A stretch of 64,000 nt of DNA, from sequence record OP557969.1, one strand, 5' to 3'. Shown here in pieces: positions 1,330 through 18,313 of this stretch. The stretch's first letter is position 1. Every line of letters starts with the position of its first letter. The notes under the pieces were generated by a model. The model searched no databases, was not told where the DNA came from, and saw nothing but the letters and a program-made list of their open reading frames with translations. The translations under genes were made by a program, and so were the position numbers. Origin of the DNA: Escherichia phage ph0011.

Positions 1330-1890
1330 ATGAATGAGATAGAGTTATTATCACACAAGATTAGTACAATAGCTACAGTACTGAACAACAAAAATAAAGT
1401 ACATAGTTCCTTTTTAAGAATTAATAAAGTTGGTAGTAGTTTATATTTGGAAGTAAAAGCGGGTTTTGCAGGACAGTACAATGATAAAATCAAAGAAGAA
1501 GTTAAGGGAAATGAAGATGCTTTCATTGAGGTTTGTGCAACAGTTGGTTCAAATCCAATTTCAGTATCACCGTTAATGCGAAATGAAAATTCAGAATTTG
1601 ATTCCAGTTTCGAAGGTTATTTGTGGTACAATTATGGTGATAATTATTTTATATATCAGAATTCCAAAACGAATTATAGTGAAGAAGGTATAAAATTCAT
1701 TGATCCTTACAATGAAGCAGAAGTATTTCAGAAATCCCTAATATACAATACAAATCAAATGAAGTATCTTATGTTGTTTAGTACAATGCATTTGAATCCA
1801 TTGAAAGATAATTTAAAATTTTTCATTCGTTTAGAATTAGTTGATATTACTTATGATCTTTTAATCCAAGGAAGTAGTTATGAAGTATAA
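1330..1890 (+). CDS. FQ-family paralog
   Basis: ATG ORF; core motif EAEVFQKSLIYN. Confidence 0.65.
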   Translation: MNEIELLSHKISTIATVLNNKNKVHSSFLRINKVGSSLYLEVKAGFAGQYNDKIKEEVKGNEDAFIEVCATVGSNPISVSPLMRNENSEFDSSFEGYLWYNYGDNYFIYQNSKTNYSEEGIKFIDPYNEAEVFQKSLIYNTNQMKYLMLFSTMHLNPLKDNLKFFIRLELVDITYDLLIQGSSYEV

Positions 1891-2194
1891 AATGATGTAT
1901 ACACCATCATTAGTATATGTAGAATTAGAATCAAATGATAATGGGTGGAATTTCATTAAACATATCGATACCAATACATGGTACATGGCTCACTTGGATA
2001 ATAATGTGGTATCAGACCATTTTATGGATTTCAATATCTTAGATGAAGATGAATTTTTCCAAATGCAATTGGTGCTTGACACAAATGGTTTTGATATGGT
2101 ATTATTAAAGAATATACAGAAAGCTGTTGATGAATTAATAGCTGAACATAATTTGAGCGAAATAAGGATTAGTTATGACCTCGAAGTACTGTGA
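1880..2194 (+). CDS. FQ-family paralog
   Basis: ATG ORF after AGGAAG; core motif EDEFFQMQLVLD. Confidence 0.6.
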   Translation: MKYKMMYTPSLVYVELESNDNGWNFIKHIDTNTWYMAHLDNNVVSDHFMDFNILDEDEFFQMQLVLDTNGFDMVLLKNIQKAVDELIAEHNLSEIRISYDLEVL

Positions 2195-2525
2195 GTTTGA
2201 AATTAATAAGTTAAGAGAATGGTTTTATAATATTGAAATTGAGGCCATTCCTTATCATACATATGAACAAAGTGATTTACAATGTATTGATATTAGGGAG
2301 TTGTACAAATATTATCAAAGTGCGTTAGAGATGCATAAATTATTTTTGAGTACGGATTTCTTTATGCAGTATAATTTTGAGGAATATAATAATTATAACT
2401 TAGTACAGAAATACGTAGTAGCAAAGTACATGTACATTCAAGGTATTAAAGGTTGTATTGAATTCAATACTGTTCTTGCTTTAGTTGAGGTAATTTTATG
2501 TACAGCATGTGCATATCTAATTTAG
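2175..2525 (+). CDS. hypothetical protein
   Basis: ATG ORF 116 aa; no family motif. Confidence 0.5.
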   Translation: MTSKYCEFEINKLREWFYNIEIEAIPYHTYEQSDLQCIDIRELYKYYQSALEMHKLFLSTDFFMQYNFEEYNNYNLVQKYVVAKYMYIQGIKGCIEFNTVLALVEVILCTACAYLI

Positions 2526-3016
2526 AGTTTAGTTTAGATGCAGCCTTTAAATTTGCACATAAGATAGAAACAATATATAGTTTTTTTAGTGAAGTTTATG
2601 AAGTTTGTGCTAAACGATATATCGATACAATAGACATTAGCAATAAGTTCGATGTATGGCACAAAACAATCCAAAGCAAAAAGCAGTGTGCAGCAGTTTT
2701 TAGTGTTTTATCATTTAATCCCAGCAATTGTTACCCAGAGAAGCATGAACGTTATCCCAATGACGACATGTGGTTTGTGTACAAAGAAGATGCTGATATG
2801 TCGTCATTTGAAGTTCCTGATAATTTTGATATCAGTGATTTAACAGAAGAGTGGTGGTTCCAGCAGAATTTAGTACATGATGATATTGATTTATTTTTCT
2901 ATATCGTGTTCAAAATACTTTATCACAACAATATAGTTAAAGATAGTGTATCGTTTTCATGTCTATATATTGATGAGTTGTTCGAAGATATCAAAAATCT
3001 CAAGCCTGTATCGTAA
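2498..3016 (+). CDS. FQ-family paralog
   Basis: ATG ORF; core motif EEWWFQQNLVHD. Confidence 0.65.
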   Translation: MYSMCISNLEFSLDAAFKFAHKIETIYSFFSEVYEVCAKRYIDTIDISNKFDVWHKTIQSKKQCAAVFSVLSFNPSNCYPEKHERYPNDDMWFVYKEDADMSSFEVPDNFDISDLTEEWWFQQNLVHDDIDLFFYIVFKILYHNNIVKDSVSFSCLYIDELFEDIKNLKPVS

Positions 3017-3031
3017 GATATGGGCTTTTTT
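3002..3031 (+). terminator. candidate weak intrinsic terminator
   Basis: AAGCC...GGCTT stem around stop codon followed by TTTTTT. Confidence 0.35.
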
Positions 3032-3033
3032 GT

Positions 3034-3062
3034 TTGACTCAAGTACAAATGAATGGTACAAT
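3034..3062 (+). promoter_or_regulatory. sigma70-like early promoter
   Basis: TTGACT-N17-TACAAT about 25 nt upstream of the ATG at 3088. Confidence 0.45.
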
Positions 3063-3087
3063 GTGAAATCATTTTAAGGAGAACCCT

Positions 3088-3636
3088 ATGGAAAATTTTC
3101 AAATACCACAAGATTACGATACAGCGAAAGAGATGGTACACAAGGTTCATTACATTTTTAATGAATTAATTATTGCAAATTCATCCTGTATGCAAATTGA
3201 GTTAAAGGGTATTAATAGTGAAGAAGTTTTTTTGGCTTCTCCAAGTTCAATTATTCCGTTGTATGGTATGGACCGTTTATGGTTCATGAGAGATGCACCA
3301 ATTGACAGGTACAAAATACAAAAAAAATCAGAGAATGATTTTCTTTATGATTATTTTAATATTTCATTACAAGCACACGATATAAGTACAATGAGTGCAG
3401 AGGAATATTTTCAGCACAGTACAGTGTATAGTCCAGAAGAAATCTTTGTTGTTATGCTTGTTGCAAAATTGAGTACTGTTGATTTTGGGACGTACCCAAA
3501 TAAATCATTCAAGATTATTATTCCTGCATTTGTTGATCTTTATGATTTCATTGTGCACAAGAAAGAAAGTACAGTGTACGATATGCAGCGTTCAAATATC
3601 AGTTTAATTGCAGTAAGTGCAGGGGAATTAAAATGA
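3088..3636 (+). CDS. FQ-family paralog
   Basis: ATG after AAGGAG; core motif AEEYFQHSTVYS. Confidence 0.7.
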   Translation: MENFQIPQDYDTAKEMVHKVHYIFNELIIANSSCMQIELKGINSEEVFLASPSSIIPLYGMDRLWFMRDAPIDRYKIQKKSENDFLYDYFNISLQAHDISTMSAEEYFQHSTVYSPEEIFVVMLVAKLSTVDFGTYPNKSFKIIIPAFVDLYDFIVHKKESTVYDMQRSNISLIAVSAGELK

Positions 3637-4241
3637 ACATAGACCAATTAATGAAGTACAGTAAAAGTACAGTTCCAGTACTAAGTAAAGTGTTAGATGC
3701 CTTCACTGCTAAGTACCCTGAAGGTTCAGAGTTAAATATTCCTTTTACTACACCAGGGATTGATGATACTTACATGGTACACATTGGTAGTTCAGGTATT
3801 GTTTTGAAGCAAAAGTACAGTGATAGTGAATATTATGGTTTGAAACTGGATAAAATTTCAGGAGAGAAGACACCTTTTGAGTTTTGGATTCCGAATAGTA
3901 TTGAATCATGGAATACACATATTAATAAGAGAGACGAAGGTAATATTTCTCTTGTAAATTATAAGGAAAAAAGATTTGACGTATTTTATTATTACAGTAC
4001 AGATACGTTTCCAGAAGAGATTTATTTAAATTCAGAGATGTATGAAGATATTGAATCATTTTTCTTTCAGTTATCATTGGTACATGATATCATGCCATTG
4101 CAAGCGTTCAGGGATGAAATAAATTTAGCGAAAGAGATTTCGGATATGTTACCTGAATTTAGTGTTCTTTATGGTAGTAGAGCTTTACCTGAAAATGTGT
4201 ATATAGAATTTATTTCTTGTGTTCAAGGATTGAATATATAA
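3633..4241 (+). CDS. FQ-family paralog
   Basis: ATGA overlap with upstream stop; core motif ESFFFQLSLVHD. Confidence 0.7.
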   Translation: MNIDQLMKYSKSTVPVLSKVLDAFTAKYPEGSELNIPFTTPGIDDTYMVHIGSSGIVLKQKYSDSEYYGLKLDKISGEKTPFEFWIPNSIESWNTHINKRDEGNISLVNYKEKRFDVFYYYSTDTFPEEIYLNSEMYEDIESFFFQLSLVHDIMPLQAFRDEINLAKEISDMLPEFSVLYGSRALPENVYIEFISCVQGLNI

Positions 4242-4242
4242 T

Positions 4243-4437
4243 ATGAACGAAGATGATATCAAAAAAAGGCATACGAAGTTTGAACTGCTCCCTGACGAAA
4301 TCCACATTGATATAGTTAATTTTAACATCAAAGCGTCCTTGCATCCTATATCACAAGATGATTTTGACAACAGAGTGCTTAACATAGTGGTGATTTTGTG
4401 CTATAATCATTTCAGTGAATATTTTAACAAAAGATGA
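4243..4437 (+). CDS. small hypothetical protein
   Basis: ATG ORF 64 aa directly after upstream stop. Confidence 0.45.
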   Translation: MNEDDIKKRHTKFELLPDEIHIDIVNFNIKASLHPISQDDFDNRVLNIVVILCYNHFSEYFNKR

Positions 4438-4444
4438 GGTACAT

Positions 4445-4966
4445 ATGTATCAGCACACGTACAATACATCATATGAGTATGGGTACAGCATTTTGAAGAT
4501 TATCAAAGCGTTAGAGGGTGGATTGCTTAGTCATAAGTACACCAGAGTAGGTGACAATTGGTTCAGAAATGATGATGATGAGTTCAGAAGTCATAAAATC
4601 GTTTACAGTAATAATTACAGTGCTAATTATCTTCAGGATGTGGTTATGTGCTTTGAATACGTGTTACAGTTCAGGGGTTCCATCAGACCAGAGTTAAGAG
4701 AACACATGTACATTCGATACCTACCAATGCTTGAGGATGAGAAATCAATATTCAATTCAGTACACCACAGAGTACGAGATAGAACATTCAGGAATATTTT
4801 GGAAGATGAAGCTGCCTATTTTCAGCGATCATTGATTGATGCTCCTGATGTGTTACAGATGCAGAATTTGTATAATGTATTAGATGCGAACATCGATACT
4901 GATATCTTTTTTTCCTTAAGTGATTATGAAACATGTTTGGAAGATTTAAAGGAAATAGGATTATGA
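4445..4966 (+). CDS. FQ-family paralog
   Basis: In-frame ATG at 4445 after GAGG; core motif EAAYFQRSLIDA. Confidence 0.65.
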   Translation: MYQHTYNTSYEYGYSILKIIKALEGGLLSHKYTRVGDNWFRNDDDEFRSHKIVYSNNYSANYLQDVVMCFEYVLQFRGSIRPELREHMYIRYLPMLEDEKSIFNSVHHRVRDRTFRNILEDEAAYFQRSLIDAPDVLQMQNLYNVLDANIDTDIFFSLSDYETCLEDLKEIGL

Positions 4967-5307
4967 GTGGATTTACAGTATATATAGTAAACGTCAGTAC
5001 AGATGGTAGTTTAATTGAATTTGATGTAGTTGATGACGATGATAATGCATATGGTATTAAGGTGCAAGACAATGTTGTGCAGTTCAGTACAAGAACAAAT
5101 TACGAAAATCCAGTTCCTGTTCCTAATTTCATAGAAGACGAAGCTGTACGATTCCAATACGAAACTGCCTTTGACAATATAGCGATGCATATTATTATGC
5201 AACACAGTTTAGTTCAATTAGTTCCTTTATTTAGACAAAATGTATATGTACATGAATTGTCGATTAATAACGTTCAAAGTTCCGTTTTGTTCGGCACAAA
5301 TATGTAA
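4963..5307 (+). CDS. FQ-family paralog (divergent)
   Basis: ATG at 4963 overlapping upstream TGA (ATGA); motif EAVRFQYETAF. Confidence 0.55.
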   Translation: MSGFTVYIVNVSTDGSLIEFDVVDDDDNAYGIKVQDNVVQFSTRTNYENPVPVPNFIEDEAVRFQYETAFDNIAMHIIMQHSLVQLVPLFRQNVYVHELSINNVQSSVLFGTNM

Positions 5308-5316
5308 GGAAGGATA

Positions 5317-5859
5317 ATGAGTTTATTAGATACCATAGAAAAAGACAGAAGTGCCATTAAGAGATTAAAAAATCTGGTTCTGTGTATTGTGAACAACGTT
5401 GAAAAGTTTGAAGTCCAAGGAAGAATTGGTGATATTTCACATACAGGAATAAAATCCCTGAAGTCAGATTTATTAATTCATAAGGAAGATAAATTATTAT
5501 TTGTATTGAGTTCAGATTTATTGGTTGCAAGTAATGGTTTCAATTCGGTATCAACACAAGATGGTAGTACTGGATTATATCTATCACAGGGTGTACAGAC
5601 GAATGAACATAAGTGTTTTAGTTCAAGAGTACAGAATCCCTTTAAGTTTAATACAGAACAAGCTACAGAGCTTTTTGAGGCTTCAGAAGAGATGTTATTT
5701 CAGTACAAAATGGTCTATACAGATTTTGAAATACGATGCCTATACGCTGTTAAGCATTATGTACAAGAGTTCGAAGATTTAAATTATCTTTTAGTTCGAA
5801 CGAATACGAAGAACATTGACATATTAGAAGATTACATTTCAACAGTTGTTAGTGTGTAA
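5317..5859 (+). CDS. FQ-family paralog
   Basis: ATG after GGAAGGA; core motif SEEMLFQYKMVY. Confidence 0.65.
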   Translation: MSLLDTIEKDRSAIKRLKNLVLCIVNNVEKFEVQGRIGDISHTGIKSLKSDLLIHKEDKLLFVLSSDLLVASNGFNSVSTQDGSTGLYLSQGVQTNEHKCFSSRVQNPFKFNTEQATELFEASEEMLFQYKMVYTDFEIRCLYAVKHYVQEFEDLNYLLVRTNTKNIDILEDYISTVVSV

Positions 5860-6034
5860 TGGGATGTTGCTTATGAAGGAGTTATTTGATGAACAGTTCA
5901 ATGTATTAATGGATAATATTCTTTTTTATAGCCTTGGTAGTAAACGAGGAAATCGTGCTTACAATATAGATTACATATTAACTGTGTTGAGTTCACAGTA
6001 CACATATGCTGTGCAGAGGACATATTATGAATAG
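5846..6034 (+). CDS. small hypothetical protein (start uncertain)
   Basis: ORF track only; track start is TTG, in-frame ATG at 5873; weak. Confidence 0.25.
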   Translation: MLVCNGMLLMKELFDEQFNVLMDNILFYSLGSKRGNRAYNIDYILTVLSSQYTYAVQRTYYE

Positions 6035-6212
6035 TTATAGTGGTGTTGCTAAGGAGAAGTTAAATTGTAGTTTAGATTTTGGCTTAAATGATTTTCTTAC
6101 GTGCACAATGTTCAGGAATGATGATTATGAACAATCCGTAATTTCGTTGTATAGATATTTTGAAATAATTTACACAAGATACCTTAGAAGGTTAGAGGGA
6201 TTGGAATTATGA
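6027..6212 (+). CDS. small hypothetical protein
   Basis: In-frame ATG at 6027 after AGAGGA. Confidence 0.4.
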   Translation: MNSYSGVAKEKLNCSLDFGLNDFLTCTMFRNDDYEQSVISLYRYFEIIYTRYLRRLEGLEL

Positions 6213-6427
6213 TTTATGAACAAAAAGTACCAAGTGGTTATAGTGTTGATGGTTTTGAATTCATGATGGATTTGGTTTTAAAGAATACATTAGTAGTACA
6301 CCGTGCATTACCGGACCATGTAGATAGTGCGGTTCAACGAATAATGAATGTATACGAGATGACGAGTCGAAAGCTTTGTGCAATGAAAAGGATTGAAGAA
6401 ATCAAGCGTTCTAGGATGAATAATTAG
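6209..6427 (+). CDS. small hypothetical protein
   Basis: ATGA overlap with upstream stop; 72 aa. Confidence 0.45.
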   Translation: MIYEQKVPSGYSVDGFEFMMDLVLKNTLVVHRALPDHVDSAVQRIMNVYEMTSRKLCAMKRIEEIKRSRMNN

Positions 6428-6567
6428 AGACGTTTCGTATGATGTATTCAAACGTACAATAAAACAATACTATATAACTTTTTATAATTGATATTTTTTA
6501 AAAAATACACAATCACAACGTGCTCCTTTTATTGGAATTTACCTTATTAATTATAGTTGAGGGGAAG

Positions 6568-6945
6568 ATGGAAATGAAATATAAAGATTTTCATATAGGG
6601 ACATGGATGTACACTGGTGAGTTTATTACGTGCTGTAATTTATACAAGCGTGATTTAAACTACTCAAGGGAGAAGGTTATAAAGTTCGCAGATTCACAAT
6701 TTTATTTTATGGAGTTAAGTACTGGAATTCGTGTTAAATCAACCGTTATGCTGGATTATACAGTTCTGGATGAGGCACAATTATTTCAGGAGTCATTAGT
6801 ATTTGATAAGAAGTACAACTGTACATTAGAAGAGATAGTTGAAATCCAGCGTAGGATCAAATTTATTCACAAGGATTGTATCGATAAATGGTGTAAAACT
6901 GGTGAAACTAATTTTAGTAATTATTTCAATCTAGGGGAAGAGTGA
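6568..6945 (+). CDS. FQ-family paralog (short form)
   Basis: ATG at 6568 after GAGGGGAAG; core DEAQLFQESLVFDKKYNCTLEE. Confidence 0.7.
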   Translation: MEMKYKDFHIGTWMYTGEFITCCNLYKRDLNYSREKVIKFADSQFYFMELSTGIRVKSTVMLDYTVLDEAQLFQESLVFDKKYNCTLEEIVEIQRRIKFIHKDCIDKWCKTGETNFSNYFNLGEE

Positions 6946-7301
6946 TGGAATTTGATTTTGTAATATCAGTACATTCTTTCAAGAATAGTTTTCAGTACTT
7001 TTGTAATTTAAACAAAGGTGATTTAATGCACAGTGCAAATGAGTATATTCATTACACTGCTGGTAAATTTACATTTATTGATTACGATTCATTACAGTAT
7101 CCACATCAGGATATGCCGGACTTTACATTAATGGATGAGGCCGAACTATTCCAAGCTGCATTAGTATTCGATAAGAAGTACTTGTGTACACTAGAAGAAG
7201 TAATTGCCATACAAAATGAAATAAAAGAGTATGCTGCTTTGAATAAATCCAATGTAAGTATTAATCAAGAATACAAATTCAATATAGGAATTACAGAATG
7301 A
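6942..7301 (+). CDS. FQ-family paralog (short form)
   Basis: ATGA overlap; core DEAELFQAALVFDKKYLCTLEE. Confidence 0.7.
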   Translation: MMEFDFVISVHSFKNSFQYFCNLNKGDLMHSANEYIHYTAGKFTFIDYDSLQYPHQDMPDFTLMDEAELFQAALVFDKKYLCTLEEVIAIQNEIKEYAALNKSNVSINQEYKFNIGITE

Positions 7302-7663
7302 CATTTGATTATTCGATATACGTTTGCAAGTCCAGAACGGGGTGGGATTTGTGCTGTAATCTTGTCAAGGGTGACTCGGAACATGAGTTGAGTTTATATA
7401 TTCAGTACTCGGATTTGTGTTTTAATTTTATTGATGTATTGTATGATGACTTCGACTATAACTCTGAAAGTATTACAGATTATACAGTACTGGATGATGC
7501 TGAACTATTTCAAGCTTCTTTGGTGTTTGACAAGAATAAGTACTCATGTACAATAGAAGATATGATTTTTATACAAAATGAAATGAAGAGATATGTCAAA
7601 GAAAACACCTTTGATACATCTACACCAACAACAAGTAATTATTATTTCAATACAGGTGAGTAA
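7298..7663 (+). CDS. FQ-family paralog (short form)
   Basis: ATGA overlap; core DDAELFQASLVFDKNKYSCTIED. Confidence 0.7.
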   Translation: MTFDYSIYVCKSRTGWDLCCNLVKGDSEHELSLYIQYSDLCFNFIDVLYDDFDYNSESITDYTVLDDAELFQASLVFDKNKYSCTIEDMIFIQNEMKRYVKENTFDTSTPTTSNYYFNTGE

Positions 7664-7664
7664 T

Positions 7665-8006
7665 ATGGAATATGATTTTTCTATTTATATGCCTATAATT
7701 AGTTCACAAGATGTGTATTGTAATCTTAATAAAGGTGATTACGAACACAAAATGGATCAGTACATTAAATTTAATGGTGCGTACTTTAGCTTCATTGATT
7801 ATCAGGCCAAAGGATCAGTTGTAGAAAATATGAAAGACTATACAACAGTACATGGTGAGGCTGAAATATTTCAAGAGTCATTAATATTCGACAAGAAGTA
7901 CTTGTGTACTCTAGAGGAAGTAATTGAACTCCAACAGAAGATGAAAGAATATAGAAGAATCTACACAGAGACTGGTTCCAAAGATAGGTATCGTTTTAAG
8001 CTATGA
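7665..8006 (+). CDS. FQ-family paralog (short form)
   Basis: ATG at 7665 directly after upstream TAA; core GEAEIFQESLIFDKKYLCTLEE. Confidence 0.7.
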   Translation: MEYDFSIYMPIISSQDVYCNLNKGDYEHKMDQYIKFNGAYFSFIDYQAKGSVVENMKDYTTVHGEAEIFQESLIFDKKYLCTLEEVIELQQKMKEYRRIYTETGSKDRYRFKL

Positions 8007-8188
8007 ATAAAAAAGAACAAATGGAATCATTCATGAATACAATACTTCGACGATTCGTAATTGATATTAGACATAACAACATTACCAGGAATGACATGTG
8101 CTTCGGTACATATAATATTAGTGAATTGTATATAGCTAATATTCACATGGTGTACCGAGATTATATCCAGACACTACACGGGAGTTGA
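8003..8188 (+). CDS. small hypothetical protein
   Basis: ATGA overlap; 61 aa. Confidence 0.45.
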   Translation: MNKKEQMESFMNTILRRFVIDIRHNNITRNDMCFGTYNISELYIANIHMVYRDYIQTLHGS

Positions 8189-8189
8189 T

Positions 8190-8660
8190 ATGAGTTTTGA
8201 AAGAGCATTAGAAATTGCTAAGTTAATTGATGTATGTAAAAAAGAAATAGTGCTCAACAGACTCAATGGGTATCTATTCAAGGAAGGTAAATCTTATTGC
8301 CGAATGATATACGATGACAGTAGTGAATATATTCACATGTATGAAGAAAATCTTGATGAATCTGAAACAACACTCACTGGGTGTGATGTTAATCTGGAAG
8401 ATAATTACATGTACTTCTGTCGTGATGCTGATATTTTAATACAAGAAACATCATATCAAACTGGGAATCCAGAGGTATATCTTCCATATTCAGTACTGGA
8501 TAATGACTGGGGAAGTGAAGAGTTCTACTTCCAGCAGAATACTATCTACGATGAAGATGTACTTGACAAGCTTGTCATTCTGTGGTACTTTAAGAACACT
8601 GATACTCCTAACTTCTATATAGATTTGGATCTACTAAGAGTTATTAATGAGGATATATGA
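8190..8660 (+). CDS. FQ-family paralog (long form)
   Basis: ATG after GGGAG; N-terminal MSFERALEIAK; core PYSVLDNDWGSEEFYFQQNTIYD...WYFK. Confidence 0.7.
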   Translation: MSFERALEIAKLIDVCKKEIVLNRLNGYLFKEGKSYCRMIYDDSSEYIHMYEENLDESETTLTGCDVNLEDNYMYFCRDADILIQETSYQTGNPEVYLPYSVLDNDWGSEEFYFQQNTIYDEDVLDKLVILWYFKNTDTPNFYIDLDLLRVINEDI

Positions 8661-9097
8661 GTTTAGTAAGTGCACTTGAACTGGCACACAAAATACACAA
8701 CTTCCATGATAAAATAAAAAGTGGGTTTTATGGTGATAACGTAAGTGAATTTGGTAATGAGTATTATCTATCAAGTTCAAATACATACGCTGATGATATT
8801 TTACTTATGGGTCATGATAAAGACAATACTATACAGTACTCTTCATGTAGTCAATATGCTAGTTTTATGGTATATATTCCAGGAACTAAGATTACTTTTG
8901 ACACATCAAATACACCTGTTGACTTCGGGGTACTTGATGGTCCATGGGGTACTGAAGAGTATTACTTCCAACAGAGTCTTATTTTTAGCCAAGAGATGCT
9001 TGATACCTTGGTTGTGTTGTGGTACTTTAAAGAATTGAATTTTGAACCATTCTTTCTTGACTGGGGAGCATGTGAGTATTTAAGTTCAGGAGAATAA
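8657..9097 (+). CDS. FQ-family paralog (long form)
   Basis: ATGA overlap; N-terminal MSLVSALELAHK; core GPWGTEEYYFQQSLIFS...WYFK. Confidence 0.7.
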   Translation: MSLVSALELAHKIHNFHDKIKSGFYGDNVSEFGNEYYLSSSNTYADDILLMGHDKDNTIQYSSCSQYASFMVYIPGTKITFDTSNTPVDFGVLDGPWGTEEYYFQQSLIFSQEMLDTLVVLWYFKELNFEPFFLDWGACEYLSSGE

Positions 9098-9099
9098 TA

Positions 9100-9567
9100 A
9101 TGTCATTGCGAAGTGCATTGAAAGAAGCAAAGAAGATCCATAATTACATGATTATGGTACAAGAAGGTTCCGTGCCTGGTGTATATAAAACATCTGATAC
9201 TGAATTTTTCGTAAAAGATCGAGATGATTATGATGAGTCAGAGATATGTGCAGAAACGTTAGTACTGCACATTGATACGGATGATACTGATGACTGTGAA
9301 TATCAGATGCACAATCAATACCTTAGTTATTATAGGGATGAAGATATTATAATTTACACTCCTGATTACGATGATGATAACATAATCATTCCGTATTCAG
9401 TTCTGGAAGGTCCATGGGATAGTGAAGAATATTATTTCCAGCAAAGTACTGTGTATAATGAAGATGTTTTAGATGTTATTGTAATTATGTGGTACTTTAA
9501 AAGTATTGATTCTGACAGTTTCTATTTCGATTATGAATACGTAGAGAATACTGTAGGGGGAAGATAA
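9100..9567 (+). CDS. FQ-family paralog (long form)
   Basis: ATG after AGGAG; N-terminal MSLRSALKEAKK; core GPWDSEEYYFQQSTVYN...WYFK. Confidence 0.7.
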   Translation: MSLRSALKEAKKIHNYMIMVQEGSVPGVYKTSDTEFFVKDRDDYDESEICAETLVLHIDTDDTDDCEYQMHNQYLSYYRDEDIIIYTPDYDDDNIIIPYSVLEGPWDSEEYYFQQSTVYNEDVLDVIVIMWYFKSIDSDSFYFDYEYVENTVGGR

Positions 9568-10010
9568 TGTCATTACAAAGTGCTCTTGAAAAAGCAAAAG
9601 AACTTCATGCATATATTGAAGATATTAAGGCTGGGAAGTTCGAAGAAATATACAAAGCCGAGAATGGTAACTACTACAAGGATAGTGATTTTGCTACAAC
9701 TACAGTTATTCTTGGGTTGAATTCCAAAAGTCCAGTAGACTTTTCTCAATACAATCCAGATGCAGAATTTATTAGTTATGCTTATGGTGGCGAAATCCGT
9801 TTTTATAATCGCAGCAGACCTTTAAAATTGAACTTTGAAGTACTGAAAGGTCCGTGGGATAGTGAAGAGTACTACTTCCAGAATAGAACTTTGTATGATG
9901 ATGAAGTTCTAGATACTTTAGTTATTATGTGGTACTTTAAAAGTATTGATAGTACAAGATTTTATTTGGATTATGAATATGTACGTGAAGTTTATAAGGG
10001 TAAACGATGA
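9567..10010 (+). CDS. FQ-family paralog (long form)
   Basis: TAATG overlap; N-terminal MSLQSALEKAKE; core GPWDSEEYYFQNRTLYD...WYFK. Confidence 0.7.
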   Translation: MSLQSALEKAKELHAYIEDIKAGKFEEIYKAENGNYYKDSDFATTTVILGLNSKSPVDFSQYNPDAEFISYAYGGEIRFYNRSRPLKLNFEVLKGPWDSEEYYFQNRTLYDDEVLDTLVIMWYFKSIDSTRFYLDYEYVREVYKGKR

Positions 10011-10321
10011 AATTCTTATACAATATTCAGTACATTCCGGGTACAATTAGTTTAATGTATTTCTTCGACCATGATAATTTCCAACATCTTGCAGTTAGGA
10101 GATGTAATGAATCTTTAATGATCGAATATCTTCACGATTGTGATTATCTTCCTGACTTACTTGAATGTGATTACAGAGATGAGCATGAATCATTTCTGTT
10201 TCAGGAATCACTTGTATGGGACAAGAGAATAAATTTTTATGTTTTACTTGAGATACAAAAACAAGTAAAGTACTACTGGGATTACTTAATCACCCAAGAC
10301 TATATAGAGATTGAAATATAA
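10007..10321 (+). CDS. FQ-family paralog (short form)
   Basis: ATGA overlap; core HESFLFQESLVWDKR. Confidence 0.65.
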   Translation: MKFLYNIQYIPGTISLMYFFDHDNFQHLAVRRCNESLMIEYLHDCDYLPDLLECDYRDEHESFLFQESLVWDKRINFYVLLEIQKQVKYYWDYLITQDYIEIEI

Positions 10322-10764
10322 TGTACGAAAGTGATCTTAAGCACGCTGAAGAATTAGTTAATATAGTAAAGTTCTTTCAAAATAATGTAAAGTACTTAGA
10401 CTATAAAGGGGCTTATATTAGTACTATAAGTGTTGGTACAGATATTCTAGGATTAGGCAATGAATATAAGTACGAGTCCCATGATTATGACTTGGAATTC
10501 AAGTACTTCGTATGGGATTCTGGAACTTTCTATTCTATAGATGAAGATGGCAAATATTTTGAATTCACAGAAGAAGAAGTTCTATTCTTAAATTCAGAAG
10601 ATGCTTACTTTCAATATAGTACTATATACCCAAACGCGGCGTTAAGAGCTTTAGTAGTTTTTAATGCATTTCTGAAAGAGAACTTTAACAATTCTATATT
10701 CATTGATTTAGATTATGTATATGAACTAAATCAGGTGATATATATGGAGTCCAGAAAAGAATGA
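10321..10764 (+). CDS. FQ-family paralog
   Basis: TAATG overlap; core SEDAYFQYSTIYP. Confidence 0.65.
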   Translation: MYESDLKHAEELVNIVKFFQNNVKYLDYKGAYISTISVGTDILGLGNEYKYESHDYDLEFKYFVWDSGTFYSIDEDGKYFEFTEEEVLFLNSEDAYFQYSTIYPNAALRALVVFNAFLKENFNNSIFIDLDYVYELNQVIYMESRKE

Positions 10765-11216
10765 GTTATGAAAGTGCACTAAAAAAGGCTAATGATATTC
10801 TACGCGTTGTTCAGTTCTTAAAGGACTATCCTGTTTATGTAGATGATGAACGCAGAGAAGTTTCTAATGGCACGAAGATTACAATTGATTCTTTATTTGA
10901 CACTAGCAGCAACAACTGTAGTACTATTGAATTAGCATACGATTATATTTCATTGAACAGAAAATATGATGAAGTTACGATAGAGCGTCATGAGGATGAA
11001 GAATCTTTTAAAATTTCTGATATTTTATCCCTGAGTACTGAAGAAGGGTACTTCCAGGGAAGTACTCTTTATAATGAAGAAACACTTGACAATCTATGTA
11101 CATTTAGTGTACTATATCAGAAGTCAGTACTGGATATATTTTATCTAGACACTGAAAAACTTGATAGGTTAGTTGATTTCGTTACTATAGAAGAGGCATC
11201 CTTTGAGAAAAATTAA
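10761..11216 (+). CDS. FQ-family paralog
   Basis: ATGA overlap; N-terminal MSYESALKKAND; core TEEGYFQGSTLYN. Confidence 0.65.
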   Translation: MSYESALKKANDILRVVQFLKDYPVYVDDERREVSNGTKITIDSLFDTSSNNCSTIELAYDYISLNRKYDEVTIERHEDEESFKISDILSLSTEEGYFQGSTLYNEETLDNLCTFSVLYQKSVLDIFYLDTEKLDRLVDFVTIEEASFEKN

Positions 11217-11739
11217 CATTAATGATTATGATGCATTACAAGATTTATCAAAAAAGATTCGCACTATCGTACCAGTACTGAAGAAATGCAGTACTGGATT
11301 AATCGATCCTAGTACAGTTATTAGTGAGAAGTACAATTTTCATAAACTGTTACAAGGGAATGGTGCATTCCAGAAGTGTGAGATACGTGAGACACACGTA
11401 ATTGATACATCATTGTTTTCTATTGGTGCACCTGTGTCGAATAATACTATTTTCCTAGACAACGCTGGAAATATTCAACAATTAACATTTAAGAAAAGGA
11501 AAAAGAACAATAACATTGGTGTGTATGCGATGAAGTGGGGTCAACCTGATTTGAAGCGTGAAATTCACATCCCTAAGTACAATTACAATGCATTTGACGA
11601 ACAGTGTTTTCAACTATCGTGTACTGACCCTGACTATGCTATCATTCAGTTCTATATGGAATTGCAGATTGCATTTAACAGTAATTTGTATATTAACTTA
11701 TTGGCGATGAACATCGATGAAGTATTCAAAAACATTTAA
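11203..11739 (+). CDS. FQ-family paralog (divergent), probable TTG start
   Basis: No in-frame ATG near 5' end; TTG at 11203 after GAAGAGG; motif FDEQCFQLSCTDP. Confidence 0.5.
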   Translation: MRKININDYDALQDLSKKIRTIVPVLKKCSTGLIDPSTVISEKYNFHKLLQGNGAFQKCEIRETHVIDTSLFSIGAPVSNNTIFLDNAGNIQQLTFKKRKKNNNIGVYAMKWGQPDLKREIHIPKYNYNAFDEQCFQLSCTDPDYAIIQFYMELQIAFNSNLYINLLAMNIDEVFKNI

Positions 11740-11935
11740 TCGAATTGAATACATGAGAACTGTGAGTGCAGTGTGGGACATATGGTTCACTACTAAACCA
11801 AAAATGGATTACCATGACTTTAAGCTATTGTTCTTCGTTGGCTCTAACAAACAGGATGTTGCAATGAAGGGTTATATTCAGCACTTACAGGAACTAATCC
11901 AGAAGAGAATATATGAAAATAATAGACCAAGATGA
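11717..11935 (+). CDS. small hypothetical protein, family B
   Basis: ATG ORF; motif DFKLLFFVGSNKQ; overlaps upstream gene by 23 nt, start uncertain. Confidence 0.45.
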   Translation: MKYSKTFNRIEYMRTVSAVWDIWFTTKPKMDYHDFKLLFFVGSNKQDVAMKGYIQHLQELIQKRIYENNRPR

Positions 11936-12104
11936 TATTGCTAAACTATTCAATATATATTCTTCTAAAATGATGCAAATCGACTCATATAGTACTGAAT
12001 TCAAAGAATTAAAAGTACTGATGTATTTGGGTACACAACATCAGGAACAAGTTGTTAAAGAATATATTGATTCATTACAGAAGGATATACGTTATGTACA
12101 ATGA
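11913..12104 (+). CDS. small hypothetical protein, family B
   Basis: ATG ORF; motif LKVLMYLGTQHQEQVV. Confidence 0.5.
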   Translation: MKIIDQDDIAKLFNIYSSKMMQIDSYSTEFKELKVLMYLGTQHQEQVVKEYIDSLQKDIRYVQ

Positions 12105-12648
12105 GCTTGACTTAGCATTTGAACGTGTAAAAATCTTCATTGAAACTTATCTTATGCACAAAACTATATTGAAAACAAAAGGAATATGGTTCACTGATAA
12201 ATTTCTTACTATGGCTAAGAGAGATGGAATGGAACATCTTTACTGTACAGATAGTGCCAGAATTTCAGTACTGAATTATGATGAAAGTGTATCATCTGGT
12301 ACTAGTTTAATTTCGACATATAATGATAATATTACTAGTATTATGTATACTAAAAATTGTTCAAATGTTTCTGTATATAAAAACTGTGATAGTTCATTAT
12401 CGTACAATATCGATCAGTACTTTTATCCTAATACAGAAGAAAACATCTTTCAAAATAGTCTTATATTGGATGATACATCTAATAAATGTATATATCTTTA
12501 TAATAAATTAAAAGAGTACATTGATAACAGTTCAATTAGAACTAATACATTCAGTGTTTCTGTTTTAAATTATAATAAGGAAGATGTGTTTTATTATACA
12601 GAAATTGAAAGAATACATACAATGTATAAGGAACTACTATGTTATTAA
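12094..12648 (+). CDS. FQ-family paralog
   Basis: In-frame ATG at 12094 after GAAGGA; core TEENIFQNSLILD. Confidence 0.6.
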   Translation: MYNELDLAFERVKIFIETYLMHKTILKTKGIWFTDKFLTMAKRDGMEHLYCTDSARISVLNYDESVSSGTSLISTYNDNITSIMYTKNCSNVSVYKNCDSSLSYNIDQYFYPNTEENIFQNSLILDDTSNKCIYLYNKLKEYIDNSSIRTNTFSVSVLNYNKEDVFYYTEIERIHTMYKELLCY

Positions 12649-13241
12649 ATGCAAATAAATGTTGTAGTGCTGATGTTCATGTATATTTTAAGAAATTAGT
12701 CAATGATATCATCTATATGCAAGAAATCATTTATCACAAAAGAATGGACTTAGAAAAAGCATTAGCTCAGTTCTCTTTTAATCTAGATGGTGATATATCT
12801 TTAGATGGTGATGGGTTACGTATAACATTAGACAGCAATTCCAATAGAGTTTTCTTTTGGATAGATAATAAATTATGTTCCTCAATTTGTCGCACTTTTT
12901 ATAACCCTATTTCGGACTTGTATCAATTGGTTTATTCGAAAGGTGCGGTTGAAGCATCATATGGTGATAGTTTTGCACTAGGGAAGTCCATTCCATATAT
13001 GCAAACATTTGATATTGAATTAGTCAGTACTGATGAAGATGTAATGTTCACAAATGATCTAACGATGCAGCGTGAATCTGCAATGAGATATATAACAAAT
13101 TCAATGCATACCTTCTTTAAAATAGCAGAATTTGATAATGTATATATATCAAATGTAAATATTTTCACTGACTTGTGTCAGTTTTTGAGAAATATTTTTG
13201 ATTTTGATGAAAGATATTCTAAGTTTTATACTGAGGTTTAA
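12639..13241 (+). CDS. hypothetical protein (possibly a divergent FQ-family member)
   Basis: ATG ORF 200 aa; only a weak motif-like segment DEDVMFTNDL. Confidence 0.55.
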   Translation: MLLNANKCCSADVHVYFKKLVNDIIYMQEIIYHKRMDLEKALAQFSFNLDGDISLDGDGLRITLDSNSNRVFFWIDNKLCSSICRTFYNPISDLYQLVYSKGAVEASYGDSFALGKSIPYMQTFDIELVSTDEDVMFTNDLTMQRESAMRYITNSMHTFFKIAEFDNVYISNVNIFTDLCQFLRNIFDFDERYSKFYTEV

Positions 13242-13246
13242 ATCAA

Positions 13247-13606
13247 ATGAATACCATTAGTATTACGTACTACACAACTAAAAAATACGTTTGTTGTTTA
13301 CTTTCTTTGAAGACTAATGATGATATGTTCAATAATGTGGCATATACATTAGAATTGTCAGAAGATGGTTTTCAATGTCATGAAGCATACTCAAATACAC
13401 GTGAAGATACAATTGATACTACGCTCATGCAAGAGGATGAATTATTTCAAGAAAGTTTAGTATGGGATAAAAAGTACTATTGTGATTTTGATTTTCTATG
13501 TTTAATCCAGAAAGAAATGAAAAGGATCTTCGACAATTATCCAGTGAAGAGATTAAGTTCTGGACCAGAGCAGTACAGGAGGATGATATTCCGATATGAA
13601 GACTAG
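13247..13606 (+). CDS. FQ-family paralog (short form)
   Basis: ATG after GAGG; core QEDELFQESLVWDKKYYCD. Confidence 0.7.
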   Translation: MNTISITYYTTKKYVCCLLSLKTNDDMFNNVAYTLELSEDGFQCHEAYSNTREDTIDTTLMQEDELFQESLVWDKKYYCDFDFLCLIQKEMKRIFDNYPVKRLSSGPEQYRRMIFRYED

Positions 13607-13931
13607 ATTAGTAAAAGTAATGTATGCTACACATATTAAACTACTTCTTGTGAAATTTGATTATAATAAAAAACACAATGAGTTTTATACTTTAATTCGT
13701 AATGAAGAATCATTTTCATTGAGATGTAATAATATACCAATGAAAATAAACGATTACACCACATTAGATGAGGGAGAACTATTCCAAGAATCATTAGTTA
13801 TTGATAGTAATATAAAAATAGATATAGAAATTATTAAGCAGTACCAGACGTTATTAAACAAAATTATGAATTGTTATCCCTGTAGAATAGAAGGTAATAT
13901 GCAATTTAAATCGAAAATGTACGAGTTGTGA
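13596..13931 (+). CDS. FQ-family paralog (short form)
   Basis: ATG ORF; core DEGELFQESLVID. Confidence 0.65.
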   Translation: MKTRLVKVMYATHIKLLLVKFDYNKKHNEFYTLIRNEESFSLRCNNIPMKINDYTTLDEGELFQESLVIDSNIKIDIEIIKQYQTLLNKIMNCYPCRIEGNMQFKSKMYEL

Positions 13932-13938
13932 GGTTTTT

Positions 13939-14475
13939 ATGTTAGATAAAATAATCAATACTGGAACACCATACAACCATCTTAAGTTGGATACATTTGA
14001 GTCAGCATTAAGTACTGCCCAAGATATAATTGATATTATTAAGTACATTAAAGAAAATAAGATAAAATGTTTAAAAAAGATAAATCATTCAATGTACAAA
14101 GATGACGACATTCATGTATCAGTTCTAAAGCCAAAAGATAAAGTAAATGGGAGAGATTTTTATAATAATAGTGGACAGTATGAATGCGAATATGACCCAG
14201 AATTTCGTGGCGGGTTCATGTGCTACAGTAAAAATGACACATCACATATTGAGATACGTACAATAAACGGTGGTATAACTAGATTGGAGTTCATTGATAT
14301 AGTTTTAAATCAGGAAAATTACTTCCAACAAACATTAATTTATCCTTCTTATTATGTAGGAGTACTATTCATGTACAAGTACTTCTATGTGCACTTAAAT
14401 GAAGATTTCTATATAGACTTAGAAGATTACCAATTAGTATGGGAAGAAATGATAGAACTTCGCAATAACACTTGA
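13939..14475 (+). CDS. FQ-family paralog
   Basis: ATG after GAGG; core NQENYFQQTLIYP. Confidence 0.65.
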   Translation: MLDKIINTGTPYNHLKLDTFESALSTAQDIIDIIKYIKENKIKCLKKINHSMYKDDDIHVSVLKPKDKVNGRDFYNNSGQYECEYDPEFRGGFMCYSKNDTSHIEIRTINGGITRLEFIDIVLNQENYFQQTLIYPSYYVGVLFMYKYFYVHLNEDFYIDLEDYQLVWEEMIELRNNT

Positions 14476-14501
14476 CCCCCACCAAATCTTTGTGATATAA
14501 T
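14472..14501 (+). promoter_or_regulatory. sigma70-like early promoter with extended -10 (TGTGATATAAT)
   Basis: TTGACC-N18-TATAAT with TG two bases upstream of the -10; intergenic. Confidence 0.5.
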
Positions 14502-14534
14502 CTCTTTAAATTAATTGTAAAGGGTTATATCGCA

Positions 14535-15008
14535 ATGTCACCAGACCTCAATTTCGATAATGCACAAAAAATCGCACAATATATCATTAAACTTCATAAG
14601 TTTCTCATAACAGTTAAAGAGGATATAATTCTACCCAAAGGTAAACTTTATGTGGGCAAAAATTATTTGTCATATCGTGGAAATTTATTGTATACTACAG
14701 ATGAAAATTTCTGTGGTATTCGTGTAATTGACGATGTACCAACAGGAAACTTTATCTCATATTGTTTCCGTACATCTAGTCGTTTTAAGTACTATCATCC
14801 TAGATATGATGATGAACATGACACATTTGATGTTAGGACAGAAGAAGATTTTTTCCAGAACAGTACTTTACACGATGAGAGAATTGTGTTGAGTTCTACA
14901 ATTTTTACAGTTCTTAAAGATGAACTCAACGACGCAAATGATAGATTCTATATGGATTTAAACTTCGTAGATGAAATTATGGAGTACATGGAGACGAATG
15001 GTTTATGA
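14535..15008 (+). CDS. FQ-family paralog
   Basis: ATG after AAGGG; core TEEDFFQNSTLHD. Confidence 0.7.
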   Translation: MSPDLNFDNAQKIAQYIIKLHKFLITVKEDIILPKGKLYVGKNYLSYRGNLLYTTDENFCGIRVIDDVPTGNFISYCFRTSSRFKYYHPRYDDEHDTFDVRTEEDFFQNSTLHDERIVLSSTIFTVLKDELNDANDRFYMDLNFVDEIMEYMETNGL

Positions 15009-15475
15009 TTACAACAACATATGATTACGATGGTGTTTTGGAATTTGCATCTAACATTCATCGCATTGCTAAGGAGTTCAGAAGTCCCGAACCGTTTGGT
15101 GGAATGTTCCATTATGACATGTTCAGTTCACCCAAAGGAAAACTTGCCTATAAAAATAATAAGGGTAATCAAGTATATGCTGAAATCTTTGACGATAATG
15201 ACTTTCACTACAAAGCCGAATACATTTCATATTGTCCTGGGTCTGATTTGAAGATTTATATTGATAGGGATAAAGAAAATGTATTTGTTCCATATACTGA
15301 TTTAGTCTTCATGTCAGAGGAAATGTACTTTCAGGAATCATTGATTCATGATATAAAAGTTCTTAATGCTATATTATTATATGGTACACTACTTAATTAT
15401 TACAAATACAATCAAAGATTCTTTTTAGATTTAGAAGTATACTATATATGCGTGGATTATTTGAATGCAAAATAA
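15005..15475 (+). CDS. FQ-family paralog
   Basis: ATGA overlap; core SEEMYFQESLIHD. Confidence 0.7.
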   Translation: MITTTYDYDGVLEFASNIHRIAKEFRSPEPFGGMFHYDMFSSPKGKLAYKNNKGNQVYAEIFDDNDFHYKAEYISYCPGSDLKIYIDRDKENVFVPYTDLVFMSEEMYFQESLIHDIKVLNAILLYGTLLNYYKYNQRFFLDLEVYYICVDYLNAK

Positions 15476-15827
15476 GAAAACAATTCAGTACATCACTGAT
15501 GGCAATGAATACTTTGCTTCAAGATATGAATTCAGTGAGGGTCATTTCGTAACTTATATACCTGAATATAATCAGTTTTATCTCCAGATTTACCAAAAAG
15601 ATTCCAATATAAATGAATTATATACCGAAATAAAAATCCCAGATTATAGTACTTTATCAGAAGAGGAATTGTTTCAGGAGAGCACGATCAGTACTGAAGA
15701 TGTATACGAACTAATTGAATATCAGAAGGTACTTAAATATTTCCATAAATCACATGATATAGAAATGGATATGGTTAAACCGTGGCGTTATAATACATAT
15801 GAGGTAAATTATGTTAGAAATGATTAA
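15465..15827 (+). CDS. FQ-family paralog
   Basis: ATG ORF; core SEEELFQESTIST. Confidence 0.65.
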   Translation: MQNKKTIQYITDGNEYFASRYEFSEGHFVTYIPEYNQFYLQIYQKDSNINELYTEIKIPDYSTLSEEELFQESTISTEDVYELIEYQKVLKYFHKSHDIEMDMVKPWRYNTYEVNYVRND

Positions 15828-16224
15828 AATCATACAACGCTGTCTTGTTGACAAATATGGTATATATGGATATAGTTTAAGTGCTCCTATTGACAAAAAC
15901 AAAACAACCTATGTAAGCTATAATGCAGTGCGTGGGTTTGATATATTCATTAGTACTAATCATCAAATTAAACAAGCTAAAGATGTGTCTATGATGGCCC
16001 CTGACGAGTTGTTTCAGTACAGCTTAGTTCTTCCTACATGTATCGATATACATCGTCTAGGAGCTATACAGAAGGTTTTACGTGAACATAAAATACTACC
16101 TAATAAAATTACACACATCCCAGAAACAATCTTCAAAACCATAGAAGTAGAAACCCCTGATTATATGTTAAGTGATGATGAGTTCTACGAGAAGCACTTC
16201 CCTGGTAAAGTTTGGAGAGACTAA
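15811..16224 (+). CDS. FQ-family paralog
   Basis: ATG after GAGG; core APDELFQYSLVLP. Confidence 0.65.
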   Translation: MLEMIKIIQRCLVDKYGIYGYSLSAPIDKNKTTYVSYNAVRGFDIFISTNHQIKQAKDVSMMAPDELFQYSLVLPTCIDIHRLGAIQKVLREHKILPNKITHIPETIFKTIEVETPDYMLSDDEFYEKHFPGKVWRD

Positions 16225-16691
16225 TGAACCGAAAGTACAGAGAAACTATGAAGTTCACTAAGGAGTGTTTAGAGGTAGTTGATTTCATTTTCGATAACAA
16301 AGACTCTCTGGGTCATCACTTCGTAATTACAAAGAAAGAAGATAAGAGATACAAGTGTCAAAGACTAGGATACAGTATTGAGTTCTCCTTAATGAGTGAT
16401 GGAATGATTAACTCCTTATATGAATGTGGGAAGACTGATTACATTTCATTTAGATCATGGAGTGATAATATAATGTTCTTGAGTCCTAATGGAAGTAAAT
16501 ATCCATTTCTTAATGATTTATCAGAAGAAAGTTACTTTCAAAATAGTTTAATTTACACAGAAAAAGAACTCAAGATGCTATTCATTATGTCGTACTTTAA
16601 AAAGTACTGCAAATTTAAATTATTATCTTTTGAGATTTCATCAATGAAAGTATTCATTAAAAATGTAAAAGAATTAAAGAGGGTTTTTTGA
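16224..16691 (+). CDS. FQ-family paralog
   Basis: ATG at 16224 (TAATG overlap) after GGAGAG; core SEESYFQNSLIYT. Confidence 0.65.
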   Translation: MNRKYRETMKFTKECLEVVDFIFDNKDSLGHHFVITKKEDKRYKCQRLGYSIEFSLMSDGMINSLYECGKTDYISFRSWSDNIMFLSPNGSKYPFLNDLSEESYFQNSLIYTEKELKMLFIMSYFKKYCKFKLLSFEISSMKVFIKNVKELKRVF

Positions 16692-17802: not shown

Positions 17803-18313
17803 AGATGGTATTCTAATTAGACTAATTAAGAGTTTGATGAAGTTCACAAATAATGATGTCGATACATACAAAGTTGGGGATATTGAATTCAAATCATTTG
17901 GTATGTACGGTGAAGCCAAAACATATTATGCATCAATAAAATTACAAGAATCACACGAAATGTTAATATCGTTATCATACGAAGATGTTGACCCAAGATG
18001 GAGTTCCAGTATCTCGTTATCGAGAATGGTAATTCGTAATAATCACCGATACATTTCGTCAAGGAATACTCCTAACTTGTTTGATATTGTTTTGAATGAA
18101 AATACCAACCCTATATCTAAACATGATATCGTACCTTTAACTGATGAAGTTCGTTTTCAGTTGAGCACCATTTGTGACGAAGATGTAATATCATGTATGA
18201 AAATTTACGAGAAGGTTGGGAGTGATATTCCCATGAACTATTACCTAACCATCGATGGAACGTACATCCGAGATGATGTTCTTGTGTACATTGACAGTGT
18301 TTTACCAAAATAA
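17795..18313 (+). CDS. FQ-family paralog
   Basis: ATG ORF; core TDEVRFQLSTICD. Confidence 0.65.
   Translation: MDKDGILIRLIKSLMKFTNNDVDTYKVGDIEFKSFGMYGEAKTYYASIKLQESHEMLISLSYEDVDPRWSSSISLSRMVIRNNHRYISSRNTPNLFDIVLNENTNPISKHDIVPLTDEVRFQLSTICDEDVISCMKIYEKVGSDIPMNYYLTIDGTYIRDDVLVYIDSVLPK

Follow-up and report, generated by a model that had tools for sequence, protein, structure and literature searches.

The stretch analyzed here, referred to as the window, comprises 64,000 nucleotides (nt) of Escherichia phage ph0011 (sequence record OP557969.1), a phage also named vB_EcoM_Uniso11 (PMC9692438). The window matches the genomes of Asteriusvirus, the PBECO4/121Q-like jumbo myoviruses of E. coli (~350 kb), and its closest nucleotide match is phage CMSTMSU (92%). 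Positions 6568 to 8006 hold four consecutive short genes, termed A, B, C, and D, which belong to a much larger array of paralogues, the FQ array, whose members carry a [DE]-E-x-x-F-Q-x-S motif. A first-pass annotation, made from the letters of the window, had described the four genes as near-identical copies that reflect recent and ongoing duplication, probably by unequal recombination. Comparison with related phages retains the tandem origin of the genes and the recombination between them but not the recency. The genes, their core blocks, and the adjoining features are as follows.

6568..6945, + strand: gene A, 125 amino acids (aa), short-form member of the FQ family; phrog_15629, E 3.2e-47; identical to WAE76963.1 (ph0011)
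6945..7301, + strand: gene B, 118 aa from the ATG at 6945; phrog_15629, E 2.5e-53; identical to WAE76964.1
7298..7663, + strand: gene C, 121 aa; phrog_15629, E 8.1e-47; identical to WAE76965.1
7665..8006, + strand: gene D, 113 aa; phrog_15629, E 1.7e-31; identical to WAE76966.1
6747..6867, + strand: core block of A, covering strand 5, the FQ helix, and the start of helix 2
7112..7232, + strand: core block of B, conserved
7471..7590, + strand: core block of C, conserved
7832..7952, + strand: core block of D, conserved
6945..7027, + strand: first 83 nt of B; 11 related phages have this segment twice, on either side of an inserted cassette (X)
6428..6567, + strand: gap of 140 nt before A, AT-rich, with a perfect -10 hexamer TATAAT (6483-6488) and a weak -35
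8003..8188, + strand: open reading frame (ORF) of 61 aa that overlaps D by ATGA and travels with D; not a member of the FQ family

All four reading frames of the first-pass annotation are recovered on the + strand, with two possible starts for B, the ATG at 6945 and a GTG at 6942 that would give 119 aa. The four proteins, which are already present in GenBank as the consecutive "hypothetical proteins" WAE76963-WAE76966, match the phrog_15629 profile from end to end, each over ~1-120 of its 121 positions. PHROG and Pfam searches with the 61-aa ORF give no match. A GAGGGG Shine-Dalgarno sequence sits 4-9 nt 5' of the start of A. The stops and starts that follow overlap or abut, reading TGATG at A/B, ATGA at B/C, a 1-nt spacer at C/D, and ATGA between D and the 61-aa ORF, an arrangement consistent with translational coupling in one operon. 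Judged by its -10 hexamer, the gap before A is a possible promoter region for this operon.

The orthologues of A–D in phage fEgEco12 are g111-g114 (37.2-38.7 kb), which lie just inside the 21-kb left terminal repeat in a region where all genes read inward; the termini of fEgEco12 have been verified experimentally (PMC13070987). Orthologues or subfamily members elsewhere include gp365, gp368, and gp369 of 121Q and gp443c-447c of phAPEC6. In the CMSTMSU record (MH494197.1, "UNVERIFIED_ORG"), genes A and D are frameshifted at GACAAAAGTAC (2741-2800 and 3827-3890), where the other phages read GACAAGAAGTAC. These frameshifts, which are probably sequencing errors, are the cause of the fragmented annotation of CMSTMSU. 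The orthologue of gene A in phAPEC6 (gp447c; MK817115.1, 2553-2930) carries the GenBank label "amidohydrolase 3", which is unsupported, as gene A of the window has no Pfam match and the family has no supporting fold match.

Similarity of the four copies and their place in the FQ array

The long shared block reported in the first-pass annotation is present in all four proteins and reads ...DYT.LD[DE]AELFQ[EA][SA]L[VI]FDKKY.CT[LI]E[ED]..IQ. Over this core of ~36 residues (DYT.LD.AELFQ..LVFDKKY.CT.EE...IQ), the copies are 61-69% identical, and over the N-terminal ~58 residues just 25-39%. Identity over the whole proteins is 39-47% (about 43%), codon-aligned nucleotide identity is 56-59%, and third-position identity over the whole genes is 45-54%. 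The values between A–D and 16 other members of the array are mostly 17-37% at the amino acid level and 33-54% at the nucleotide level, disregarding a few spurious values of 75% that arise from very short overlaps in the semi-global pairwise alignments. The four genes are therefore closer to one another than to the rest of the array at both levels, as had been noted, and with their common assignment to phrog_15629 they constitute a genuine subfamily. They are not near-identical, however: nucleotide identity stays below 60%, the synonymous divergence (dS, Nei-Gojobori) between copies is 0.95-2.57 and thus saturated, and Tandem Repeats Finder detects no tandem repeat in 6000-8500. In a direct-repeat search, only cores of 66-108 nt, spaced at a period of ~360 nt, reach 64-79% nucleotide identity.

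The wider array and the short forms that the first-pass annotation had placed in the same subtype as A–D are listed below.

1330..25606, + strand: FQ array, ~40 ORFs with the [DE]-E-x-x-F-Q-x-S motif; a few non-family genes are interspersed
10007..10321, + strand: short form of another subfamily (phrog_32253)
13247..13931, + strand: two adjacent short forms (phrog_13866 and phrog_34600), fused to one gene in Salmonella phage SD-1_S14

The genes at 10007, 13247, and 13596 are indeed short forms with the same motif, but they fall into other PHROGs (phrog_32253, phrog_13866, and phrog_34600, respectively), and a profile of A–D finds them with E values of 3.6e-5, 1.2e-14, and 3.3e-8. Further short forms are located at 1880, 15465, and 15811. 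Short forms in the array measure 104-137 aa and long forms 140-200 aa, A–D being one subfamily among them, and outliers with the FQ motif occur at 28311, 38266, and 38841. The superfamily accounts for ~7% of the phage genes. In an alignment of 26 family sequences, the F of the motif is invariant and the Q nearly so. Short and long forms align in hhalign over 18-25 columns around the motif (E 1e-4 to 4e-4) and are connected by one PHROG cross-hit, by which they are probably homologous members of one superfamily. Most of the proteins are acidic (the median pI is 4.9), and aromatic residues are abundant in them. A 137-aa gene at 23359-23772, amid the array, has neither the FQ motif nor a Pfam match.

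An exhaustive profile search of 1.84 billion representatives returns 42 clusters, all of small proteins of 99-160 aa, and a word-indexed homologue search returns only 12 close relatives. Pfam searches with ten family members yield sub-threshold noise only, such as RINGv and DUF7335. PADLOC profiles give no match at E up to 1, a sequence profile search of the PDB gives nothing below E 0.65, a scan of IMG/VR returns only the 121Q genome, and complete E. coli genomes contain no match. Immunity-protein arrays of the SUKH or SMI1-KNR4 type, which are likewise tandem sets of small α+β proteins, were considered as relatives and rejected, as neither SUKH structures nor the Pfam models resemble the family in fold or profile. 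The FQ family is not described in the literature searched, in which the paralogues of RaK2-like phages are mentioned only in general terms. By these searches, the superfamily is lineage-specific and fills the left arm of Asteriusvirus genomes.

Many members of the database clusters that contain the A–D proteins are labelled Escherichia coli and lie on contigs of 350-360 kb, in line with reports in which Asteriusviruses rank with the virulent phages that persist most frequently in assemblies of bacterial isolates (bioRxiv 10.1101/2024.12.31.630880). A single cluster member bears the label Actinomadura adrarensis, presumably owing to contamination.

Age of the duplications and recombination between copies

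The duplications can be dated relative to the divergence of the phages. Between each copy and the corresponding gene of Turkey3 or 121Q, dS is 0.10-0.52, compared with the saturated values between copies, and the ratio of nonsynonymous to synonymous divergence (dN/dS) in the same comparisons is ~0.1-0.5. In a neighbor-joining tree of 29 copies from nine genomes (118 columns), the copies group by position rather than by genome, with bootstrap values of 100, 96, 99, and 98 for the A, B, C, and D clades, respectively. The one exception is the divergent phage EJP2, in which three of the four copies form a cluster (bootstrap 78), at pairwise identities of just 42-60%. No locus with two copies more than 61% identical is found among 20 related genomes and metagenomic contigs. 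The positional grouping means that the duplications predate the radiation of the PBECO4/121Q-type phages. Read from these comparisons, A–D are old, diverged tandem paralogues of one subfamily, each of which has since been kept as a gene of its own under purifying to relaxed selection. The tandem origin proposed in the first-pass annotation thus stands, and the words "recent" and "ongoing" do not apply to the duplication.

The contrasting account sees in the four genes young tandem duplicates, nearly identical and generated by unequal recombination that still continues, in other words a phage "gene accordion" that is expanding now. The head-to-tail order of the genes, their ~360-nt period, and the block at 64-79% nucleotide identity are compatible with such an expansion, as are the variable copy number among isolates and the documented recombination between copies. 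Opposed to it are the low identities of the copies, their saturated dS, the negative repeat search, the positional orthologue clades across the PBECO4/121Q-type phages compared, and the fact that none of the 20 loci holds a pair above 61% identity. In addition, all of the copy-number changes observed are deletions with fusion or insertions of a foreign cassette. The accordion is already contradicted for this window on sequence grounds, and we consider it exceedingly improbable.

Recombination between copies that alters their number is borne out by in-register fusions of A with B, of C with D, and of the 13247-type with the 13596-type gene in related phages; across the 20 genomes and contigs, the subfamily ranges from one to four copies. 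An A/B chimera is carried by the Logan contig SRR27732228, which has the architecture A/B-C-D. Up to the core block, the chimera has three differences from A of Turkey3, and afterward it is 100% identical to B of Turkey3; the switch occurs at TGTACATT, in the orthologue of the core block of A. In the isolates vB_Ec-M-J and TH47, a C/D fusion replaces separate C and D genes to give A-B-(C/D). The fused gene consists of the region upstream of C and the first ~10 nt of C, followed by a sequence 100% identical to D of Turkey3, with the junction T(A/T)TGATT at codons 3-4, and amounts to the in-register loss of one ~367-bp unit. Contig SRR13001969 shares the MTFDF-type start and the architecture of the C/D fusion phages, ERR11558579 has an A-B-D-like architecture as in vB_Ec-M-J and TH47, and some contigs carry B-C only. 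In SD-1_S14, the 13247-type and 13596-type genes are joined at CCAGA, within the conserved IQ codons. The record with this fused gene (OR699183.1, 3001-3345) is that of a 310-kb Salmonella Asteriusvirus, ~40 kb shorter than its relatives and with many very short called genes nearby, and it may represent a multiply deleted genome or a problematic assembly.

The arrangement A-B-C-D without X is common to the window, fEgEco12, and CMSTMSU and, from hit tables, also to WPEC3 and WPEC5. In 11 phages, including phAPEC6, 121Q, and Turkey3, an insert of 530 nt separates A from B; it begins with the 5'-terminal 83 nt of B, continues with the 3' tail of a gene of the 12639 type, and ends with a short-form gene of phrog_13866 (X). 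The divergent phage A4 also carries this tail and X, at 93% identity, in the place taken in the window by the 13247 gene. Both junctions of the cassette are microhomologies of 7-8 nt, the left one being GATTTGAT (codon 27 of B) and the other TGATGGA (a stop/start overlap). X is, to judge from these junctions and from the A4 copy, a paralogue cassette that moved ectopically, probably between co-infecting phages. The chimeric ORF formed by the 5' end of B and the 12639-type tail measures 74 aa in 121Q (2915-3139) and 53 aa in Turkey3 (2929-3090) and phAPEC6; the 53-aa form has lost an internal segment, from between SSN[VI]L and CNIL, in a secondary deletion at microhomology inside the inserted cassette.

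A third type of event is visible in B of Turkey3 and fEgEco12, which within the core block contains 26 nt identical to A; the tract carries five clustered differences from B of the window, all to the A state, and suggests a probable micro gene conversion from A to B. Conversion of this kind, acting as concerted evolution, could in principle homogenize the core block and so explain the likeness of the copies without a younger subfamily. In addition to the tract itself, the mosaic distribution of the ES and AA variants of the FQxxL motif over A, B, and C in different phages and the concentration of identity in the core point in this direction. Subfamily-specific likeness extends outside the core, however, as in the CNL.KGD motif and in the N-terminal region, and the copies cluster by position and not by genome, with a low third-position identity over the whole gene. 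The core is, moreover, conserved at the protein level across the superfamily, so that most of the likeness is accounted for by purifying selection. Concerted evolution is for these reasons an unlikely account of the subfamily, and we retain descent from old duplications.

Gene D varies as a unit with its neighbor. D and the 61-aa ORF that follows it are present together in 7 of 33 matching phage records, a set that includes two phages deposited twice. In phages that lack D, the slot is occupied by a long-form paralogue of 147-164 aa that is ~60% identical to gene 9100.

The events visible in these sequences are deletions in the form of fusions, the insertion of a cassette from a divergent relative, and a short apparent conversion tract; none is a fresh tandem duplicate. 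Together they show a cluster remodeled by recombination at short shared stretches: in-register crossovers fuse neighboring copies and delete a unit, insertion at microhomologies introduces a cassette of paralogous sequence that stems from a divergent relative, and short conversion tracts probably pass between copies. The net pattern is one of birth and death, with one to four copies per genome. The hallmarks of such evolution are found at the locus, namely, diverged tandem paralogues with positional orthologues and lineage-specific losses, gains, fusions, and fragments, such as the 5' fragment of B.

Predicted fold, expression, and possible role

AlphaFold2 models were obtained for the short form B, with a predicted local distance difference test (pLDDT) score of 86 and a predicted template modeling (pTM) score of 0.82, and for the long form 9100 (pLDDT 91). 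The short form is predicted to fold into a series of five strands followed by two helices, namely, the FQ helix and then a long one, and by a last strand, and the long form adopts the same order of elements with additional helices at its N and C termini. The models match no solved fold or Pfam family. Fold relatives in BFVD are limited to uncharacterized jumbo-phage proteins in Asteriusvirus, Klebsiella phage RaK2, and Yersinia phage fHe-Yen9-04. Because dN/dS is below 1 and both models are of high confidence, the FQ proteins are, by selection and model alike, genuine folded proteins that selection maintains. The conserved FQ helix pair would serve as the scaffold of the fold, and the variable β-sheet would give each copy its own target.

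The motif could alternatively be read as a protease recognition site, E-x-x-[YLF]-F-Q-x-S, which would make the family substrates or decoys of a phage or host protease. It resembles the E-x-x-Y-x-Q|S/G sites of tobacco etch virus (TEV)/3C-type proteases, as in EEYYFQQS, EESYFQNS, and EENIFQNS, and the window encodes a ClpP-family protease (52302-52997). The residue that follows the Q is variable, however (Q, E, A, N, L, M, R, H, Y, or G), and the S/T lies one position later, a misfit to P1'. In both models, furthermore, the motif makes up the first turns of a helix that is predicted with confidence and lies inside a compact domain, rather than an exposed linker. ClpP is not known to recognize TEV/3C-type sites. 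Given the variable P1' position and the helical context, this reading was rejected, and its probability is close to negligible.

A location in the virion was considered as well. Both phAPEC6 and 121Q have an inner body of unidentified components (PMC7247149), and A–D, which are small, acidic, and paralogous, might be packaged head proteins of the inner-body or ejection type, as are paralogous families in phiKZ-like jumbo phages. None of gp437c-gp453c is among the 62 virion proteins of phAPEC6 (PMC7247149, Table 1), which is one proteome of a related phage, and it is on this proteome that the inner-body reading was rejected. The genes also lie in a left-arm array with σ70-type promoters, far from the structural modules, and the proteins have no N-terminal extension resembling a propeptide. 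A packaged role is very unlikely, and A–D would instead be non-virion cytoplasmic proteins produced from long operons with translational coupling.

The 21-kb direct terminal repeat of fEgEco12 (PP777464.1, 1-21000) consists of small, spaced genes. Of its 44 intergenic gaps, 31 contain a σ70 promoter scoring at least 10/12, and 12 perfect TTGACA-16/17-TATAAT promoters are present. By its promoter content, the repeat looks like a dense immediate-early region. Within the FQ array, which has few intergenic gaps, four of the gaps hold a promoter whose -10 box is TG-extended. In two of these, at 3002-3062 and 18312-18373, a terminator-like hairpin immediately precedes the σ70-like promoter, a pairing that suggests an operon boundary. 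A σ70-like match inside gene C (7527-7554) is a chance match, explained by the conserved F-D-K codons (TTTGACAAG). The array would thus lie in the part of the genome that enters first and is rich in σ70 promoters, with expression early or delayed-early. The A–D proteins would bind host components and form a diversified set for takeover or counter-defense. An early host-interaction role is what we infer from this context.

Taken as a whole, an old paralogue cluster that evolves by birth and death through recombination and that encodes putative early host-interaction binders is the reading that we favor and consider rather probable. Several observations weigh against it. One short-read Logan contig is the sole source of the A/B chimera, the SD-1_S14 record is heavily deleted, and the deep nodes of the tree, as well as the origin of D by gain or by loss, have bootstrap values of 10-50. 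The homology of short and long forms is seen by hhalign at the level of the motif only, apart from the PHROG cross-hit. The gap before A combines its -10 hexamer with a weak -35, which weakens the case for early timing of the A–D operon, and no similarity to a known anti-defense or takeover protein was found in searches that included no dedicated anti-defense library, the putative role being read from context. A bolder proposal, which we regard as conceivable and put forward tentatively, is that the ~40-member superfamily is a modular arsenal of inhibitors of host factors or defenses, built on a helical scaffold with a hypervariable sheet. Each paralogue would neutralize a different host target, the content of the array would help to set host range, and the array would be reshuffled between co-infecting Asteriusviruses via microhomology.

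Other features of the window were recorded. A second paralogue family of ~65-95 aa with the motif LSEF..LFYLGT has four members (196-644 and 11717-12104), two of them inside the FQ array; just upstream in fEgEco12 lies a ~9-kb run of overlapping genes of ~70-85 aa (21091-30445), possibly of the same family. A third tandem family, of ~92-103 aa with LNDIQFTY-like N termini, occupies 32914-35240 (33195, 33517, 33788, 34512, and neighbors). One of very few confident minus-strand genes (55357-58029) encodes a protein of 890 aa with nine Big_2 Ig-like domains (Pfam E 9e-136), which may have a connection with the "hairs" that descriptions of phAPEC6 and 121Q place on the capsid or tail. Adjacent genes at 60077-61377 encode a SIR2-family protein (E 1e-19) and a Nudt16-like NUDIX protein (E 2e-18), and a Dam methyltransferase is encoded at 30403-30927.

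Comparison with known multigene families

Had the first-pass claim been true, a phage gene family would have been caught in the act of amplifying, which is not the case. What the natural isolates keep are clean junctions, from three in-register fusions, a cassette insertion resolved on both sides, and a probable conversion tract, and these show how such arrays contract, exchange cassettes, and convert. Asteriusviruses are under development for therapy, and knowledge of the fast-turnover accessory part of their genomes aids the comparison of isolates and the choice of deletion targets.

The closest described entity is phrog_15629 itself, annotated as "hypothetical protein" in Asteriusvirus genomes, whose profile A–D match over its full length (E 1e-31 to 1e-53). 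It has no function or structure attached and no description in the literature searched. Similar to A–D, the hyperplastic regions of T4-like phages and the paralogue expansions of jumbo phages consist of blocks of small genes with no assigned function, which differ from one relative to the next, and the RaK2-like phages, which belong to the same wider group, hold fold relatives of the short form. The E-E-x-x-F-Q-x-S superfamily, with ~40 members per genome and recombinant alleles, is absent from the papers on those regions and expansions.

Large DNA viruses offer further comparisons. African swine fever virus (ASFV) has the terminal multigene families (MGF) MGF360, MGF505, and MGF110, and poxviruses have terminal host-range families. 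Like the FQ array, these families lie close to an end of the genome as same-strand tandem series of diverged paralogues that number in the dozens, their copies vary between close isolates through inter-copy recombination that includes fusion genes, and their proteins are non-structural. They differ in that they have no sequence or fold relationship to the FQ array, which resides in a bacterial virus, and in that a host-interaction function has been shown for some MGF and poxvirus genes, whereas for the FQ array it is inferred. If the arsenal proposal were true, the FQ array would be the bacterial-virus counterpart of the ASFV and poxvirus families. In the poxvirus "gene accordion", K3L is amplified under selection and near-identical copies arise within a few passages. 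A–D resemble it in being a tandem array of one gene family in which recombination shifts copy number, and they differ from it in their 39-47% identity, in their saturated dS, and in the events seen, which are only contractions or foreign insertions. In this light, A–D are an ordinary old birth-and-death cluster with unusually clear natural recombinants, set in a large family with an orphan fold.

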